DNA from: a virus
Lineage: Duplodnaviria; Caudoviricetes
Length of the DNA: 38,040 nt
IMG/VR virus record: IMGVR_UViG_3300044507_000063
Coordinates: 1-38,040 of that record
Strand: one strand, 5' to 3'
Below are positions 13,054 to 34,725 of this stretch, piece by piece (position 1 is the first letter of the stretch; the number at the start of each line of letters is the position of its first letter). The position numbers and the translations under genes are program-made. Below the pieces are notes generated by a model that saw only the letters and a program-made list of their open reading frames with translations, was not told the origin of the DNA and ran no database searches.

Positions 13054-13431
13054 ATGAACGACTTCATAAAAGGCAAAGGTTCGGTAGGTATAGCAATATC
13101 CTACTATTCATTAAGAGGGATGGTTAGCATCCCACTAGAACCTTGTGATTACAATCTTATATTTGACGATGGCACAAAACTTCATACAGTAAAAGTAATT
13201 TCTTGTTCCTATAAGACAAAATATGGAGTTTACTCAGCTTCAATAAAAACATCCGGCGGTAATCAGCCTACTACTCAATCAAAAATATTTAATCCGAAAT
13301 CATGTTCTACTGTATTTATTGTTACTGCTGAAATGCATCTTTACGAGATACCTTCTAATGTAATTCAATCCACTAGACAAATTTCTTTATGTAAATATCA
13401 CGAATATAATGTTTCTATTATTCCGAGTTAG
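13054..13431 (+). CDS. group I intron-associated-type PD-(D/E)XK endonuclease, free-standing
   Basis: KG..G..I...G..VSIP....DYNLIFD.G.KL..V.V pattern of the I-Ssp6803I-like family; catalytic motif looks altered. Confidence 0.65.
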   Translation: MNDFIKGKGSVGIAISYYSLRGMVSIPLEPCDYNLIFDDGTKLHTVKVISCSYKTKYGVYSASIKTSGGNQPTTQSKIFNPKSCSTVFIVTAEMHLYEIPSNVIQSTRQISLCKYHEYNVSIIPS

Positions 13432-13493
13432 CTCAGCGGTAGAGCAGTGCGCTGTTAACGCATTGGCCGTAGGTTCGAATCCTACACTCGGAG
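13422..13493 (+). tRNA. tRNA-Asn(GTT)
   Basis: Acceptor TCCGAGT/ACTCGGA, D arm GCTC/GAGC, anticodon stem GTGCG/CGCAT with GTT at 13454-13456, T arm GTAGG-TTCGAAT-CCTAC; CCA not encoded. Confidence 0.95.
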
Positions 13494-13498
13494 TCCTT

Positions 13499-15311: not shown

Positions 15312-15728
15312 TTATAATGCCACTTGGAGAGTGCAACGCAAGTTGACAATCCAAGATGTGTTAGTAATGTTAAACACCTGCGCCATCTTCCAACCAGCTG
15401 TTTGATACAATCTCAAGCGTGGCGATGCAATCTCTGGTGGTGCATAGATAAATTGAGCGGAATAACCGTCCAAATCAACCATGTCATATGATTCTTGACC
15501 AGGCAAGAATACGTTATATACATCTGCACCTTTTTCAGAAGCATTAGGCGTTACCGATCCAACTGAAGACAGAAGGAAACGAACGTTTCTTACTGTACCC
15601 CATTCGGATTGAAGCAGGTTAGACTGATTAGCGTAGTTAGCTACGTTAATAAATCCGACCATTTGGTCTAGATCTGCCGACAGATTCGTGTGGCCAAGGC
15701 CAAAGAATGCTGTACGAACTGGAGCTGT
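15312..15728 (-). CDS. major capsid protein exon 4 (138 aa)
   Basis: TAPVRTAFF...EWGTVRNVRF...DVY...GWK; joins exon 3 to give EGELKFG|TAPV. Confidence 0.9.
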   Translation of the reverse strand, partial: TAPVRTAFFGLGHTNLSADLDQMVGFINVANYANQSNLLQSEWGTVRNVRFLLSSVGSVTPNASEKGADVYNVFLPGQESYDMVDLDGYSAQFIYAPPEIASPRLRLYQTAGWKMAQVFNITNTSWIVNLRCTLQVAL

Positions 15729-16344
15729 CAATTCTGTTACTTTTTATTGACCTATTTGATACAACTATCCATTGCTATCTAAGCAAAGTTGCTCACTCCC
15801 ACCAGACCGGTACTTGTTGTGGGGCAGCTCTTCACTTTTCGCCTGATGAGTCATCTGACGAAACTCCTCGGAGTCGCGAAGCGCTACCAAGAAGAGTAGG
15901 TTGTAGCAGTGGCCGGTCATTTTTCAAATAGGCGGAGGGTCTTGTTATTCCCCTCTCACTGCCTTTATTTATTCGCAGTGTTCGGACTATCGCATCCTTG
16001 ATGCAGTGATGACCATCTTTCTAACCCACAAATTTCACAAGGTGGATTAATTAAAATTCCTTCACTATCATACAAGGCTTCGGGACTTAGTCTCTCAGGC
16101 TGTGAATTAATTAAATCATATTCTTTTATAGATCTACTTTCATACATTGTGGCTAAACTTTTCCATTTTATTGCATATTGGACATTTAATGTTATTCCAA
16201 TATCATTTCCGTGATCTCCGTTTTCACCACTACTTTCGTTCAATAAATATGCTTTTTTCATCACTTGCCCCTTGTTAACCTCCCACTTTACGCAGCGAGG
16301 CACTCCAAGTCAATCACCCAAAGTTTTAATTCGGCACACACTTT
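15729..16344 (-). mobile_element. group I intron 3 (616 nt)
   Basis: P1 AATTCGGT/GCCGAATT with U.G at the splice site; P7 GAGACTA (about 16088-16094) and GATAGTCC (about 15984-15991); terminal G after GTAACAGAATT. Confidence 0.92.
15828..15896 (+). ncRNA. type I hammerhead ribozyme, antisense to intron 3
   Basis: CTGATGA 15843-15849; stem II GTC-atct-GAC; GAAA 15860-15863; stem III ACTC-ctcg-GAGT; GTC cleavage triplet ending at 15875; stem I TTTCGC/GCGAAG extended by CTCTTC/GAAGAG. Confidence 0.88.
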
Positions 16345-16455
16345 ACCGAATTTCAATTCACCTTCGATCAAGTCCATAATGAACTGAGCGTTAGCCGTTC
16401 TCAATAACCGTACCGCTTTCGAGCAATCCAATGGGCTGATGTTTGTTGGGTTGTC
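16345..16455 (-). CDS. major capsid protein exon 3 (37 aa)
   Basis: DNPTNISPLDCSKAVRLLRTANAQFIMDLIEGELKFG; bounded by an omega-G and a P1. Confidence 0.88.
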
Positions 16456-16473
16456 CCACCCATCTATTACTTG

Positions 16474-16502
16474 TTGACTTAAACATTTTCAGTAGGTATA
16501 CT
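16474..16502 (+). promoter_or_regulatory. promoter of the antisense LAGLIDADG gene
   Basis: TTGACT-17-TATACT; ATG at 16509 is 7 nt downstream, with no RBS. Confidence 0.7.
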
Positions 16503-16508
16503 ATGCCT

Positions 16509-17390
16509 ATGAAAAACACATTATCATATTTAGCAGGATATATTGACGGGGATGGTTGTTTCTTCCTTAAAAAGGAGACAAATCCTCTCAAATATCGAGC
16601 GTATATTGTTATTTCCTCTACTAATGAAGAGGTTCTTAAAACCTTTGAACTTTCTTTTGGGGGAAGCATATACGCTTGCACTCCTAGAAAAGAACACTGG
16701 AAAAGATCTTATCATTGGAATTGTAGAGGAAAATTTGCTTTGGAAATAACTAATGCAATGCTTGAATTTCTCACAGAAAAGAAGAGCGATGCTCTTATCT
16801 TCATAGATTATATTAAAACTTCTTGCAAAAACCACAAACAGGAATTGATTCAAAAAATGAAAAATAATAGAGATAAAATTAGAGAAATTAATGAATCTGT
16901 TGTTGAACAGATTAAACAAACAAAAACAATTGGAGTTTCTAACGAATTGGATTATCCTTATCTTGCTGGTTTTATTGACGCTGAATGCTGTCTGGGAGTC
17001 TCTAAATACAAGCCTAAAAACAAACCCAATTTTACATACAAAATCATCCTTCAATGTCAAAACACTAATCCTATCATTTTCTTTTGGCTTATGGAGAGAT
17101 TCGGAGGAAGTATTTCGCATGTCAAACGCAATATTAAAAATCCTAATCATCGAGATCAAATAATCTGGAATATTAGTGCTGCTAAATTGGCTGACATACT
17201 TCCTAAGATCTTGCCTTTTTTGAGATCTAAAAAATCCGTTTGTGAAAAGCTTATTGAACTTCATAACACTAATATTCCAATAGGAATAAGCAGAAAAACA
17301 CAAGAATTCAGAGATTCTTATGCTCTTGTACTTATCCAGAGGGATAAAATTGTTGATGATATTCATAAACTCAATTCCAAAGGTGTATAA
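16509..17390 (+). CDS. double-motif LAGLIDADG homing endonuclease (293 aa)
   Basis: YLAGYIDGDG and YLAGFIDAEC motifs, each followed by FGG.I and W...L.FL..KK. Confidence 0.92.
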   Translation: MKNTLSYLAGYIDGDGCFFLKKETNPLKYRAYIVISSTNEEVLKTFELSFGGSIYACTPRKEHWKRSYHWNCRGKFALEITNAMLEFLTEKKSDALIFIDYIKTSCKNHKQELIQKMKNNRDKIREINESVVEQIKQTKTIGVSNELDYPYLAGFIDAECCLGVSKYKPKNKPNFTYKIILQCQNTNPIIFFWLMERFGGSISHVKRNIKNPNHRDQIIWNISAAKLADILPKILPFLRSKKSVCEKLIELHNTNIPIGISRKTQEFRDSYALVLIQRDKIVDDIHKLNSKGV

Positions 17391-17596
17391 TGTTTAAGCG
17401 GGTAGTCATTTCTGCTACCTCTCCATATTACTATGGAGGCTGGACTATCGCATATGCTATTTACATAGCATCCTCAGGGTTTAGTCTCTCAGGCTGCGCA
17501 TTACCGCTTGCCCCTTATTGTCCTTTGCTGTATACTTTACGCAGCAAGTGGGAGTTTTAAGTCAATTACCCAAGGTTTTAAAACGGCAACAATTCT

Positions 17597-17923
17597 ACCG
17601 TTTGTACCACTTGTACAATTAATTGGTGGGGCACCTCCTTCCATCATTGACCTGGCTAGCTGATCCTCAGTCTCTCTTAATGACTGACCCAAAACGGATA
17701 CAGCCGAATTTAAAACCGGGTCTTCGTTAATCAACATTACCTGTTCCTGAAGTATGATATAGGTGCCATACCAATCGATCCTGGCGTCTATGTCAAGTGC
17801 GGTAAGTTGCTGCGCTGGAGGATCTACGATACCGTTACCTAATGGTACAGGTGCAGTTTGCAAGTTTTGATATCTACGACGACGTAGAATATCGCCAGCT
17901 TGCTGATCCATCGTAATGGGATA
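17597..17923 (-). CDS. major capsid protein exon 2 (109 aa)
   Basis: YPITMDQQAGDILRRRRYQNL...YGTYIIL.EQV...EDPVLN...CTSGTNG, an N4-gp56-like capsid pattern. Confidence 0.9.
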
Positions 17924-18086
17924 CATTCTGTTACTTTATGACCTAATGTTACATCGCATTACATTGCTCACATATAGGCGACCACCTCATTTCTGGGTGG
18001 TTCCCTGATTTTATTTATTGTCAGGGGTCGGACTATCACATATCATATTGTTATTATCATCAATATGATCCTCTGGGTTTAGTCTC

Positions 18087-18245
18087 TTACGGTGTGTTTT
18101 TGGTTTTTATTAAATCAATAAACATTTCATAAAGTTTATCTGTTCTTGCAGTTTGCTGTCTCATGTCTGCTATAATATCCCTATGTATGAAATATGCAGA
18201 TCCTAAAACAGTAAATATGATCGATAAAGTTTGTATCCATTCCAT
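18087..18245 (-). CDS. intron-encoded small membrane protein (52 aa)
   Basis: MEWIQTLSIIFTVLGSAYFIHRDIIADMRQQTARTDKLYEMFIDLIKTKNTP; GGAGG RBS; stop codon abuts P7. Confidence 0.85.
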   Translation of the reverse strand: MEWIQTLSIIFTVLGSAYFIHRDIIADMRQQTARTDKLYEMFIDLIKTKNTP

Positions 18246-18267
18246 AAATCCTCCATTTTTTCGGAAG

Positions 18268-18296
18268 ATTATATCATGTTTATCGTTTATTTTCAA
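18268..18296 (-). promoter_or_regulatory. intron-internal sigma70-type promoter
   Basis: TTGAAA-17-TATAAT with extended -10 TG. Confidence 0.8.
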
Positions 18297-18365
18297 ACAC
18301 TTCCGCCATGTCACCCTGTCGGGCTTCCATGTCAATTACCAAAGGTTTTAAATGGGCTATCGTTA

Positions 18366-18473
18366 ACCCATTGTAGTATGGATCAAGTCTGGCATAGGAC
18401 GTGCAAGCAACTTCATCGAAAGCTGTTGTTGTACAGCTGGAGGAAGAATGCTTGTGGTTGTTGGACCTGACAT
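18366..18473 (-). CDS. major capsid protein exon 1 (36 aa); spliced product 320 aa
   Basis: MSGPTTTSILPPAVQQQLSMKLLARPMPDLIHTTMG; GGAG RBS; follows the scaffold gene. Confidence 0.88.
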
Positions 18474-19364: not shown

Positions 19365-19541
19365 ATGGGCGATGATATGGATAGTCTGAAATATTTTATG
19401 GCTTCAGAGAAGATGGTGAACTTGATATTTATTGTTGAACAGACTTTAGAATTTATGAATGAATATTCTATTAAGCCTGACGATGAAGTAAGAAAGGCTT
19501 TGATACCGATTATAGATGATTTAAAGAAGTGGCTTGGTTAA
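19365..19541 (+). CDS. hypothetical protein (58 aa)
   Basis: Fills the gap, convergent with 19538..20038. Confidence 0.4.
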   Translation: MGDDMDSLKYFMASEKMVNLIFIVEQTLEFMNEYSIKPDDEVRKALIPIIDDLKKWLG

Positions 19542-31275: not shown

Positions 31276-31915
31276 TGAACAAATCAATGAAATCTCTACT
31301 GCTTTATCTAAGGCACAAGGGGAAATTAAAGCGGCTCAGAAAGATGGAACTAATCCTCATTTTAAGTCTAAGTTCAGTACTTTACATAGTCATTGGGAAG
31401 CTTGTCGTCCGATCTTGTCTAAAAACGGATTAGCGGTCACTCAGTTAGCAAATATGCTAGAAGATGGACGAGATGTGCTTGTGACCATTTTATCGCATTC
31501 TAGCGGCCAATGGTTCAAGTCTTCGATGGTTCTTAAACCTGTAAAAAACGATCCGCAAGGAATGGGATCTTGTTTGTCATATGCTAGGCGTTATATGTTA
31601 TCTGCCATCGTAGGCACAACATCCGATGACGATGATGATGATGCGGAGGCTGCTTCCGGTCGTGGTAAAGATACTAAACCTGTACCTAAGCCTGCTAAAG
31701 TAGAAGCATCCCCAGAAGCTATAAAAATAGTCGATGCTAATCAAGCTCTTGAATTATTGACCTTGAGATTGAAGCTTGATAGTCCTGATAGGAAATTGTT
31801 TGACGATTGGGTTGTGAAAACCTATATGATTAACTCACTTGAATATCTTCCAGAATCAGGATATGACAAAGTTTTGCTAATTCTGAGAAAGAAGGTGCCT
31901 AATGAAGATAATTAA
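31262..31915 (+). CDS. ERF-family ssDNA annealing protein
   Basis: AL.KAQ....A.KD..NPHFKS, T.L.H.SGQW, PQ..GS..SYARRY.L...G...DDD. Confidence 0.92.
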   Translation: MNLHSEQINEISTALSKAQGEIKAAQKDGTNPHFKSKFSTLHSHWEACRPILSKNGLAVTQLANMLEDGRDVLVTILSHSSGQWFKSSMVLKPVKNDPQGMGSCLSYARRYMLSAIVGTTSDDDDDDAEAASGRGKDTKPVPKPAKVEASPEAIKIVDANQALELLTLRLKLDSPDRKLFDDWVVKTYMINSLEYLPESGYDKVLLILRKKVPNEDN

Positions 31916-32474
31916 TATGTCTCAAGACACTCCTGAATGGTTGGCATGGCGTCGTAGTTGTGTGACGGCAACAGACGCCAGCGTCATTATGGGTGTTAAT
32001 CCTTATTGCAAGATTGATAAGCTCCGACTAAAAAAGTTGGGGCTTCTTCCTGAAGAGGAAGTTAATCAATTTATGCAAAGAGGTAAAAATCTTGAACCTG
32101 AAGCCCGTAATAAATTTAATAAAGATAATGCAATGGATATGGTTCCGATGATTGTTGAATCGTCGGAACATCCATTTTTAGGAGCTTCTCTTGATGGTTT
32201 TTATAAAATTGCTGATGACACATCATTTATTTTAGAAGTCAAATGCCCAATGAAGAATAGTATGGATGAAGCAAAATCTGGTATTGTAAAGCCGCTTTAC
32301 ATTGCTCAAATGCAGCACCAATTGCTTGTCACAGGTACAGACATATGCTATTACTATTGCTACGATGGATCAGAAGGTCATACAATCGAAGTATACCCTG
32401 ACAAAGAATGGCAATCTGAATACTTGCCAAAAGCAGAAGAGTTTTGGATGAGTTTGATATTTTACAAGGAATAA
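31902..32474 (+). CDS. YqaJ-like viral recombinase exonuclease
   Basis: Q.TPEW..WR...TA.D, RG..LEP.AR, ASLDG, EVKCP, Y.AQ.QHQ. Confidence 0.92.
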   Translation: MKIINMSQDTPEWLAWRRSCVTATDASVIMGVNPYCKIDKLRLKKLGLLPEEEVNQFMQRGKNLEPEARNKFNKDNAMDMVPMIVESSEHPFLGASLDGFYKIADDTSFILEVKCPMKNSMDEAKSGIVKPLYIAQMQHQLLVTGTDICYYYCYDGSEGHTIEVYPDKEWQSEYLPKAEEFWMSLIFYKE

Positions 32475-32475
32475 C

Positions 32476-32634
32476 ATGAAACTTATACATTTATCCGCAT
32501 TGGCGCTTTTAACAAGCTGTACTTTTAGTGTAAATCTCGTCCATACTGAAGGTTCGGCTTCTGATGTTGTAGATGAAAATCAAAGAGCTGATCCCGATGT
32601 AAATACATCACTAGAAATTCCAGCTCATATATAG
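32476..32634 (+). CDS. small lipoprotein (52 aa)
   Basis: MKLIHLSALALLTSC lipobox; AAGGA RBS. Confidence 0.7.
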   Translation: MKLIHLSALALLTSCTFSVNLVHTEGSASDVVDENQRADPDVNTSLEIPAHI

Positions 32635-32794
32635 ATTTTCGTGAGATTTGGAAATGAAATAATCGTTATACATAAAATTTAACGATTTTTGAGCACATCC
32701 ATCCGAAAAGTGGAAGCTGTTTGTATTTGCATTCGCAATGTTTAACATGTTTATCGCAACCTTTACATTGTTCCATAATTTTACCTTTTAAATA

Positions 32795-32831
32795 AAAAAC
32801 CCATATTGAGGTTAATCAATATAGGTTTTTT
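32795..32831. terminator. bidirectional terminator candidate
   Basis: aaaaaCCcATATTGA-ggttaa-TCAATATaGGtttttt. Confidence 0.55.
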
Positions 32832-32864
32832 ACTCTTCGAGGTCAATCAAAGATAACTTTTAGA

Positions 32865-32993
32865 CTATTTTTTCTTCATTTTATCATATTTTTCTATTTT
32901 TTTGTCATGTTTCTTATCTTCTTTTAACAATGATTTTGTGCCTTTGAGAAGCTGTTTTTCTTTTGATTCTAATTTTTTAATTTTTTTGTCCAT
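32865..32993 (-). CDS. small Lys-rich protein (42 aa)
   Basis: MDKKIKKLESKEK...MKKK. Confidence 0.6.
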   Translation of the reverse strand: MDKKIKKLESKEKQLLKGTKSLLKEDKKHDKKIEKYDKMKKK

Positions 32994-32994
32994 T

Positions 32995-33147
32995 TTATTT
33001 ACCTTTTTTCTTTGGAATCTTAGCACCAGCCTTACGAGCTGTAGAAAGAGCAATTGCTATCGCTTGTTTCTGAGGTTTGCCATGTTCCATTTCAGTTTTT
33101 ATATTTTTTGATACCGCTTTTTTTGATTTACCTTTATCTAATGGCAT
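32995..33147 (-). CDS. small basic phage protein (50 aa)
   Basis: MPLDKGKSKKAVSKNIKTEMEHGKPQKQAIAIAL, a pattern I recognise from other phages. Confidence 0.7.
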   Translation of the reverse strand: MPLDKGKSKKAVSKNIKTEMEHGKPQKQAIAIALSTARKAGAKIPKKKGK

Positions 33148-33173
33148 TTTAGAGTGTTCCTAAACGAGGTTAT

Positions 33174-33338
33174 ATGAAATATTTATTTGTCGCTTTAATG
33201 TGTATCTCATCTTTTCTTTTTTCAAAAGAATATAAGTATGATTTATCCATTTGTACCATGTACAGAAGAAAATTTAAAAAAATGAAAAGGATATTTAATG
33301 ACGTTTATGACGACATGTTAAGCGACAAGCATAGATGA
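33174..33338 (+). pseudogene. possible internally deleted glycosyltransferase remnant (54 aa)
   Basis: GAGGT RBS; signal peptide, then YKYDLSICTM, joined to FNDVYDD. Confidence 0.35.
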
Positions 33339-33372
33339 AATTCTTCTATCTTTATAAAGATAAATTGAATAT

Positions 33373-34725
33373 TTAACCCATTAGAAATCCCGACATCATA
33401 GTGGAAGCGCCTTCAGTTGTACTTAATATATCGACAACTTTGCTTCCTCCAGTAACAGAAAGCGTTACGGTATAAGTATCCGCGGCATCCAAATCTGCTA
33501 ATACTGATCCAGTAATTTGAATACTTCCAAAATTATTAGCAACGTTTGCAGCATTTGCTGTATAAATTAGATAAGTTCTGTTAGATGTTACCATGCTTAC
33601 GGTAACATTTACTAGACCTGCAACAACTCCACCCACAGCTACAGCACATGTAAGCATATATCGACCAGTAACGGGCGCTGTGAAAGTACCTGTTGCAAAA
33701 TTATTTGCCTGATCGAATATTTTTGTTAATGCTGTCGTTGTTCCAAGCGTGAAGACGGTTCCATCTCCAGTAACATTTGAAACTTGAGTTGGCAGAATGG
33801 CTAAAAAAGCAGGTTGATTCTGACTTTTCCATTTACCAAGATTCATGAAATTGGCATTTTGAGTTGTTGTATTGATTACACTAGAAGAACCTGAAAATGC
33901 AATACCGGAAATAACAATAGTTCCAGCTCCTGTTATAGCATTCGTATTTGTGCTTGAAACATCACAAAGGGTTAAAGTCAATGTAGCATTAACACTAACG
34001 CTAATAGCACTAGATGAACCACCTGAAAATCTACATTCAGATAATATATTGTTTGATGATGATGCTCCATGAGTAATGCATGTAACACCTAAACCCATGT
34101 TAACATACAACATATTTAAAACGCCAGTTGATGACGTTGTAATAGCAAAAGCTATTGTACTATATCTTATGCTGACAGTACCACCAGAAATTGTCGATGT
34201 TCCAATATTATTAGTATCGTGATAAAGAAAAAATAAATTCAATGTTCCTGCGCTAACGTCAAAGAAAGCATTTGTATTTGTAAAATTTACACCTACGCAA
34301 TGAAGCAAATCAAGCGTTGCATTTGCATTGGATAAACTTATTCCTGTTGCTGTTGTAACAATCACTTCGCAGTTTATTAAATTTAAACTTGTCGCATTTG
34401 ATCCTGAACATGTAATTACGTTTGCTGAATTAGTATTTTCCAGATTTATTCCAGATATGTTAACGATTCCTGTATATGTAGCTGTTAATGTTCCGTTAAT
34501 TACAACGTTCCCAAAAAAAATTCCATCGCATGTATAAGATGTTAAATTAACCCCGGCTTTGAGTGAAAGGTTCTCTATAAATGTCCCGGGCATTATAAAA
34601 ATCGTATCGCCTGCTGATGCGCTTGTAATTGCTGTGGCTATGGTCGTGTGCGTGCCTTCACCGGCTACCGTAGAAACTACCCATTTTGCAGGGCTATAAA
34701 AATTGATTGCATTGGCTTGAACCAT
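33373..34725 (-). CDS. tail fibre/spike with beta-helix-like body and C1q-like C-terminus
   Basis: TTIATAI..A..GDTI.I.PG.F.ENL.L start of a beta-helix; FTAPVTGRY C1q motif. Confidence 0.75.
   Translation of the reverse strand: MVQANAINFYSPAKWVVSTVAGEGTHTTIATAITSASAGDTIFIMPGTFIENLSLKAGVNLTSYTCDGIFFGNVVINGTLTATYTGIVNISGINLENTNSANVITCSGSNATSLNLINCEVIVTTATGISLSNANATLDLLHCVGVNFTNTNAFFDVSAGTLNLFFLYHDTNNIGTSTISGGTVSIRYSTIAFAITTSSTGVLNMLYVNMGLGVTCITHGASSSNNILSECRFSGGSSSAISVSVNATLTLTLCDVSSTNTNAITGAGTIVISGIAFSGSSSVINTTTQNANFMNLGKWKSQNQPAFLAILPTQVSNVTGDGTVFTLGTTTALTKIFDQANNFATGTFTAPVTGRYMLTCAVAVGGVVAGLVNVTVSMVTSNRTYLIYTANAANVANNFGSIQITGSVLADLDAADTYTVTLSVTGGSKVVDILSTTEGASTMMSGFLMG

Follow-up and report, generated by a model that had tools for sequence, protein, structure and literature searches.

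The viral contig IMGVR_UViG_3300044507_000063 (Caudoviricetes), analysed here as one stretch of 38,040 bases (hereafter the window), encodes its major capsid protein on the minus strand between positions 18473 and 15312, in a gene that is broken after codons 36, 145 and 182. We consider it very probable that this gene is cut by three group I introns, related to one another, whose predicted self-splicing from the late transcript would yield a 320-amino-acid (aa) capsid protein of the N4-gp56 type. This reading is carried by the exon structure and its exact boundaries, by a core fold backed by covariation, by the helices P1 and P10 that match each intron to its own exons, and by intron-less alleles found in nature.

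The four exons, all on the minus strand, sum to 963 nt, that is 320 codons and a stop, and join in frame; every coordinate that the first-pass annotation of this DNA had given for them holds. When exon 4 was used to look for longer proteins, 153 homologs came up; the closest 13 (P0001-P0013) are 78-87% identical and mostly 319-320 aa long, and several of these are assigned to the Pfam family PF25209 or named 'N4-gp56 family major capsid protein' in their source. Exon 1 (18366..18473; codons 1-36, ending in ATG GGT) and exon 3 (16345..16455; codons 146-182, ending in TTC GGT) are each 92% identical to the corresponding residues, 1-36 and 146-182, of the intronless P0001. Exon 2 (17597..17923; codons 37-145, ending in AAC GGT) and exon 4 (15312..15728; codons 183-320 and the stop) match the major head protein profile PHROG 1357 with E values of 3.3e-07 and 5.6e-12, covering positions 59-159 and 212-343, respectively, of its 356 positions. 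By itself exon 2 stays under the Pfam cut-off (16.8 vs 27), and exon 4 is 87% identical to intronless 320-aa proteins. Aligned with intronless N4-gp56-like capsids, a comparison already proposed with the first-pass annotation, the spliced protein runs without a gap across all three junctions (HTTMG followed by YPITM, GTNG by DNPT and KFG by TAPV) against P0001, P0002, P0004, P0005 and P0009, and it aligns from end to end with PF25209 proteins, a full-length homology that places it among the N4-gp56-type capsids. At the level of sequence, the predicted spliced product is confirmed as a continuous 320-aa protein of this type. A blastn search of the 4-kb region against 50,697 phage records gave no match, and tblastn with exon 4 in phage records found only five distant capsid matches, at 26-29% identity.

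Intron 1 (17924..18365), intron 2 (16456..17596) and intron 3 (15729..16344) lie on the same minus strand and measure 442, 1141 and 616 nt. A GGT codon closes every 5' exon, and a six-base guide in each intron pairs with the final six exon bases, a G standing opposite the last U, to form P1: AUGGGU with GCCCAU in intron 1, AACGGU with GCCGUU in intron 2 and UUCGGU with GCCGAA in intron 3. P10 consists of four contiguous pairs in intron 1 (UAUC/GAUA), five in intron 2 (GACAA/UUGUU) and three in intron 3 (ACA/UGU); P9 of intron 2 has a GUAA loop, and the last base of each intron is G. The features that had been listed as common to the three inserts, namely AAAAC..GG..ATTGAC, GAGACTA, GATAGTCC, the GGT codon, the U.G pair of P1 and the terminal G, were seen in all of them. 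In unspliced RNA, ribosomes arriving from the upstream exon would halt at an in-frame stop, which is the very first codon (TAA) of intron 1 and follows after 19 codons in intron 2 and after 18 codons in intron 3.

The group I fold was examined in relatives. A set of 78 related loci, picked by similarity and not a random sample, was fetched and their exons were mapped; 22 introns of at most 430 nt, representing six insertion sites, were aligned by MAFFT without any window sequence. The structure scored comprised P1, P3, P4, P5, P6, P7 and P8, with P3 and P7 crossing, and was derived by eye from one alignment row. Across the 22 introns 99.6% of 748 cells are paired, and in 28 of the 34 pairs both partners vary in a compensatory way. 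In 500 shuffles this level was never attained, and sliding the partner strand by 1-3 positions left 38-48% paired; the poor pairing of these slid controls argues against circularity in a structure derived by eye. The topology is P3-[P4-P5-P6]-P7-P3'-P8-P7' with the P3/P7 pseudoknot, its helices can be read directly in the window, and the conserved blocks of the family match there. The family has neither P2 nor P7.1/7.2 and possesses a conserved tail AGUAACAG..G at the 3' end. Over the six sites, five of the six P1 pairs change in step with the exon, and the U.G pair at the splice site is present in 22 of 22 family introns. P10 reaches at least three pairs in 23 of 37 distinct family introns, against 123 of 1076 combinations (11%) with the 3' exon of another site.

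Profile hidden Markov models of five conserved blocks, built from the relatives' introns alone without window rows and searched with nhmmer across the 38,040 bases, match the window at the three introns only and in the correct order: block A with E values of 1.6e-11 to 8.9e-09 and block D with 4.9e-16 to 2.9e-06, the next matches having E values of at least 0.2. P1, P10, the covarying core and the boundaries together argue for the earlier assignment of the three inserts to group I. These block profiles took the place of a family covariance model, which was given up when the alignment behind it (A4) proved structurally misaligned in P3' and P6. A long-range pairing of UUGAC with GUCAA, between J3/4 and the 3' tail, was likewise rejected: the GG of GGUCA sits in P9b, and the intron of locus L021 lacks a partner.

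Where junctions were mapped by protein alone, the 5' exon ends in T in every intron-bearing allele; in uninterrupted alleles T stands at the same position in 15 of 36, 16 of 45, 18 of 61, 9 of 68 and 52 of 68 cases at five sites. Selection for P1 or co-conversion during homing would either of them yield this pattern.

Natural alleles give the boundaries directly. Contigs of four public DNA runs (X1-X4) were mapped onto the region. Intron 3 is skipped exactly (616 bases, 15727 being joined to 16344) in one contig of X2 and two of X4. Contigs of X2 and X4 also skip the 442 bases of intron 1, 17923 being joined to 18367 with one letter replaced at 18366, and one contig of X4 skips the 1141 bases of intron 2, 16455 being joined to 17598 with one letter between. 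At both of these joints the replaced letter turns the GGT codon into GGA. One contig of X1, which may be the source sample, spans the whole stretch with zero differences. The intron-less alleles verify where the introns begin and end and show the inserts to be optional; they are evidence on DNA, not on splicing. In the 59 loci whose gene is complete, interruptions are absent from 15; 21 loci contain a single one, 14 contain two, seven three and two four, and the count over all 78 loci is 90. The three-intron state is thus one of many states in the clade, with three or four interruptions in 9 of the 59 complete genes.

The peripheral loops of the introns likely act as docking sites for autonomous cassettes. 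In intron 1 the P6 loop would provide such a site, with a promoter-like sequence (TTGAAA-17-TATAAT, 18268..18296, minus strand; 11 of 12 matches and a TG before the -10 box, a match to the consensus only), then the Shine-Dalgarno sequence GGAGG and an ATG at 18245. This ATG opens a 52-aa open reading frame (ORF; 18087..18245, minus strand) whose product combines a single hydrophobic helix at the N-terminus with a charged tail, and the small membrane-protein ORF is found where the first-pass annotation had placed it. The protein has 107 relatives at E <= 0.01, mostly of 50-53 aa and many on contigs of 37-43 kb; it matches no Pfam or PHROG family, and a comparison with Atlas gave sub-threshold leads only, of the BhlA-holin and YvrJ type (0.85-0.87). 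Among the 78 loci, L055 carries the gene inside its site-98 intron, and in L005 and L033 it stands free upstream of the capsid gene, on the opposite strand; tblastn over the whole window found no second copy outside intron 1. We read the ORF as a conserved small phage membrane-protein gene that apparently rides in the intron. The free-standing copy of L005 (L005:2781-2954), some 1 kb upstream of the capsid gene, was compared with 19365-19541 on the plus strand of the window.

Intron 2 carries, antisense in its 3' peripheral loop, a gene for a homing endonuclease (16503..17390, plus strand) of 295 aa counted from its ATG; the ORF starts of the window being mechanical, its ORF begins at a TTG at 16443. 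The product matches Pfam PF00961 over two stretches (47.1 bits vs a cut-off of 23.1; E 4.7e-12) and PHROG 5046 (E 2.2e-42), with a weak match to I-MsoI (E 3.7e-08), and its motifs LAGYIDGDG and LAGFIDAEC assign it by sequence to the LAGLIDADG family. The antisense nuclease announced by the first-pass annotation is thereby recovered and given a family. It would drive homing into intronless alleles. A promoter-like site (TTGACT-17-TATACT, 16474..16502, plus strand; 10 of 12 matches, again to the consensus only) abuts the ATG at 16503, and its -35 box is the complement of the conserved 3' tail of the intron; the related intron of L064 has TTGACT-18-TATCAT at the same place. The site ending right at the ATG suggests transcription independent of late capsid transcription and probably a leaderless mRNA. 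Among 92 intron ORFs across the loci, 28 match Pfam LAGLIDADG models (18 sense and 10 antisense), and four further antisense ORFs show the LAGLIDADG motif only. A 10-of-12 promoter-like match stands just upstream of 11 of the 14 antisense endonuclease genes, compared with 117 of 3000 random windows.

An open frame of 278 codons (16530..17366, minus strand) runs along the capsid-sense strand, in codon register with the endonuclease gene. The codons TTA, CTA and TCA make up 3 of the 296 of the endonuclease gene, all within its first 10 codons; resampling Leu and Ser codons from window usage gave a mean of 15.2, and none of 20,000 draws was as low as 3. Ten other genes of the window use these codons at 5.1%, and the remaining two sense frames over the endonuclease gene hold 13 and 38 stops. 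The resampling overturns the view of the open frame as a mere shadow ORF. The same avoidance is seen in nine antisense genes of relatives (15 of 2119 codons) and not in sense genes (194 of 3856). Avoidance so specific to one frame implies that ribosomes may read the sense strand across roughly 840 nt; our guess is that a stop-free sense frame would guard the long intron RNA from premature termination or decay. A literature search joining LAGLIDADG, antisense and Rho-dependent found no paper.

Two features occupy intron 3. A sense ORF of 111 aa (15965..16300, minus strand), not mentioned by the first-pass annotation, spans the catalytic core (P7-P8-P7') and reaches into the P6 loop on one side and the P9 loop on the other. 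It matched neither Pfam nor PHROG, the 78 loci offered no significant relative (best E 0.005), and it is probably not a conserved gene. One frame only is open through the conserved R element, so that such read-through ORFs are partly a by-product of this element. The P9b loop hosts an orphan insert of 166 nt (15759..15924, minus strand) whose G+C content is above that of its surroundings and which is not in the introns of six relatives at the same site (alignment A2). A contig of run X3 skips 189 bases at the insert, with 28 other letters in their place.

The antisense strand of this insert contains a hammerhead-like motif of type I layout (15837..15881, plus strand): CUGAUGA and GAAA are present, there are three stems, and GUC precedes the cut site. 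That it folds into a self-cleaving hammerhead is, judged from the sequence, about an even proposition, and the competing explanation is just as tenable: the motif would be a chance match, and the insert would merely lengthen the P9b stem on the sense strand or be a stray piece of foreign DNA. For a genuine ribozyme speak the presence of all invariant core bases, three stems and the GUC cut site, a stem I with an internal loop and a distal 6-bp extension as in natural hammerheads, and an E value of 7.3e-05 with the Rfam model RF00163 in a 171-nt search, which by arithmetic scales to about 0.016 for the whole window. The score behind this value is 26.7 bits, below the gathering score of 34 (the RAGATH-1 hammerhead model gives 21.4 bits), and RF00163 was listed neither in the whole-window scan at gathering score nor in the 4-kb scan. 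Folding also favours the sense strand of the insert (z -3.29, compared with -1.41 for the antisense strand), and the structure of lowest energy on the antisense side is not a hammerhead. Relatives that could provide covariation were found neither by regular expression in the 78 loci nor by exact pattern in viral, metagenome and genome contigs, and the six same-site introns do not share the insert. By score and by relatives the motif stays short of membership in RF00163, and the 'antisense ribozyme' that the first-pass annotation had counted among the cargoes is not established.

Several observations weigh against the reading of spliced introns with independently expressed cassettes. RF00028, the only group I model in Rfam, gave no match at gathering score or at E <= 10; it was run on the window at gathering score, on the 4 kb at E <= 10, on the loci of nine relatives at gathering score and on the ORF-less 196-nt intron of L021 at E <= 10. 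The covariance-model search proposed with the first-pass annotation thus found no intron in the window. The site-145 intron of the relative L064 (L064:2860-4000), which at 1141 nt has the length of intron 2 of the window, appears to end in GAGATA before the exon bases GAC, in A instead of the G seen in the other mapped introns; the intron may be in decay, its splice site may have shifted, or the sequence may contain an error. RNA runs searched for window DNA yielded none, so that splicing, like promoter use and translation of the sense frame, is inferred from DNA. Promoter-like sites are not in excess over the region (11 vs 10.4 expected from shuffled sequence), and the 14 antisense genes are not independent because they represent about five lineages; the weight rests only on the placement of the sites and on the upstream comparison, not on the region-wide count. 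The site-133 lineage (L051, L052, L055 and L063) shows no codon avoidance, with 37 of 640 codons.

The introns might depend on assistance from a protein, supplied by the host or acting as a maturase encoded in the introns themselves, for which the LAGLIDADG protein and the small loop ORFs would be candidates. LAGLIDADG proteins serve as maturases in organelles, the core of the family is minimal and lacks P2, its shortest member has 196 nt, and many relatives have small Cys-rich ORFs in the P6 loop. We nevertheless hold such a dependence to be rather unlikely: ORF-less relatives of 196-212 nt retain the full core, and two of the three introns of the window have no endonuclease. Even less room is left for dead mobile elements in the capsid pseudogene of a defective phage, or for a mis-assembled contig, which would agree with a metagenomic origin, the missing RNA evidence and the missing Rfam match, but which is very hard to reconcile with four intact in-frame exons 87-92% identical to intronless homologs, with a covarying ribozyme core and guides that fit their own exons, with one to four such inserts in 44 of 59 complete relatives from many samples, and with the X1 contig that matches the whole stretch without difference.

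Self-splicing group I introns being the preferred reading, their distribution over the relatives bears on how they spread. Insertion sites counted as resolved show a 6-bp P1 with its U.G pair, a G at the intron's end and an unbroken protein; they fall at coding-sequence nucleotides 108, 235, 262, about 293, 315, 353, 399, 435, 546 and 651; some junctions near residues 88-101 did not resolve. There are thus at least 10 sites within about 550 nt of the capsid gene. All 76 matches of the S/P9 block in the loci fall within the capsid gene or immediately precede a truncated copy, and about 419 kb of flanking DNA contains none. A tree of the core blocks, with the guide columns omitted, intermingles the sites: well-supported branches require three or more origins for the site-182 introns, and one clade (97% SH-aLRT) unites introns of sites 105, 133, 145, 182 and 215. 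The cores therefore moved or recombined between sites. It is possible, though we hold it to be doubtful, that a single intron family has colonised at least 10 sites of one 960-nt capsid gene by retargeting its guide, through reverse splicing or promiscuous homing, and that its introns are landing pads for antisense endonuclease genes with promoters of their own and codons that leave the sense strand open to translation, for a relocated membrane-protein gene and for a self-cleaving hammerhead.

Some further observations concern the same loci. In L030, L032-L034, L036-L040, L043, L048, L050, L055, L056, L067 and L068, about 11-16 extra capsid residues stand just before the site-98 intron, for example ...DWFDHANRL...VTDGTYLILQEQV around residues 88-98, where several junctions are hard to map. 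They could be a real surface-loop insertion or the footprint of intron gain or loss. The P6 loops of many introns (L016-L078) contain ORFs of 70-100 aa that start right after the 5' strand of P6, at AAGGGGCAAG..ATG, which resembles a ribosome-binding site (L075:415-630, L054:4636-4866, L050:4165-4401 and L041:4379-4654 are examples). All of them translate the conserved R element as QPER(L/S); several encode CxxC...CxxC peptides like zinc ribbons, and one matches Pfam FYDLN_acid (E 6.3e-06).

The window as a whole is a phage contig with portal, large terminase, Erf and RecE-like recombination genes, and its genes of unknown function lie mostly on the minus strand. The RecE-like exonuclease ORF (31902-32474, plus strand) encodes 190 aa that cover positions 50-235 of a PHROG profile of 372, and about 900 nt after it (32474-33373) hold no ORF of at least 90 aa; possibly the gene is truncated, or another element interrupts it. 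A tRNA-Asn (GTT) gene (13421-13496, plus strand) follows a 125-aa plus-strand ORF in a window whose genes are otherwise mostly on the minus strand.

The practical consequence of such introns is that gene callers fragment the capsid gene and that database proteins are truncated or carry intron-derived N-termini, the cause of which the Rfam model does not flag. Among the mis-called database capsids of the clade (P0003, P0006, P0007 and P0008), P0006 has a foreign N-terminus up to junction 36 and others measure 280-295 aa. In evolutionary terms, a review described related introns at two positions of ribosomal DNA (rDNA) as the best circumstantial evidence for the transposition of group I introns to new sites, in the passage cited (2014, PMC3984707). 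At least 10 sites in one gene, intermixed cores and natural empty alleles make the question of transposition directly testable, and if the retargeting reading were true, this clade would document ectopic transposition of group I introns more densely than any other natural record. Antisense cassettes with their own promoter-like sites, combined with a stop-free mirror frame, point to a possible rule for tolerating a long untranslated insert in the most highly expressed late gene.

Comparison with known systems brings out what is shared and what is particular. The td, nrdB and nrdD genes of phage T4 contain self-splicing group I introns with loop ORFs that have expression signals of their own, as in the window, and differ from it in lying in nucleotide-metabolism genes and in having sense-strand GIY-YIG or HNH ORFs. 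In phage Twort, orf142 reportedly has three introns in one gene, as the capsid gene does here. Like the type I hammerhead RF00163, the motif of intron 3 has a complete conserved core and three stems, of which stem I is open; it departs from that family by its sub-threshold score, its very short stems II and III, its lack of relatives and its antisense position inside an intron. Jug jumbo phages also possess many short group I introns per genome, and metatranscriptome reads are reported to confirm 37 of 76 predicted ones; according to the passages cited, these introns are spread over many genes (terL, nrdD and polymerase genes) and were detected with subgroup covariance models (PMC12880540).

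The closest precedents are found in capsid genes. The intron in the major capsid gene of mycobacteriophage LittleE, whose splicing was shown by reverse-transcription PCR and protein sequencing, is described as 'most likely group I', and the same authors cite a capsid-gene intron in the lactococcal phage Tuc2009 (Pope et al. 2013, PMC3706429). As in the window, the LittleE intron interrupts the major capsid gene, follows an exon closed by U, itself ends in G, and contains a LAGLIDADG-like frame on the bottom strand; a related ORF-less intron in another structural gene is a further likeness (PMC3706429). LittleE has one intron and the window three, and the passages cited mention no promoter, codon avoidance or multi-site family (PMC3706429). 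The crAss-like phages come near in another way, with capsid genes of the N4-gp56-like lineage that have several introns, one of them lying in five fragments, and with intron-encoded LAGLIDADG proteins (Yutin et al. 2021, PMC7886860). In the passages cited, those introns were recognised by protein domains and belong to gut phages of 145-192 kb with alternative genetic codes (PMC7886860), whereas the window is a 38-kb genome with the standard code, an intron fold backed by covariation and introns in one gene only. The novelty first attributed to capsid introns was therefore overstated, bottom-strand LAGLIDADG frames and multiple introns both having printed precedents (LittleE, PMC3706429; crAss-like phages, PMC7886860). 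In the parts of the literature searched we did not meet the confinement to one gene at 10 sites or more, a relocated membrane-protein cassette, mirror-frame codon avoidance or a possible hammerhead. For the arrangement of intron 2, the nearest counterparts are the nuclear rDNA introns Dir.S956-2 and Dsq.L2066, where an endonuclease gene also lies on the opposite strand in a P9-type loop and has its own promoter (PMC9548176, PMC3073962). As described in the passages cited, the nuclear genes are of the eukaryotic His-Cys box type with spliceosomal introns and poly(A) tails (PMC9548176, PMC3073962), whereas the gene of the window is a bacterial-type cassette with a sigma-70-like promoter.

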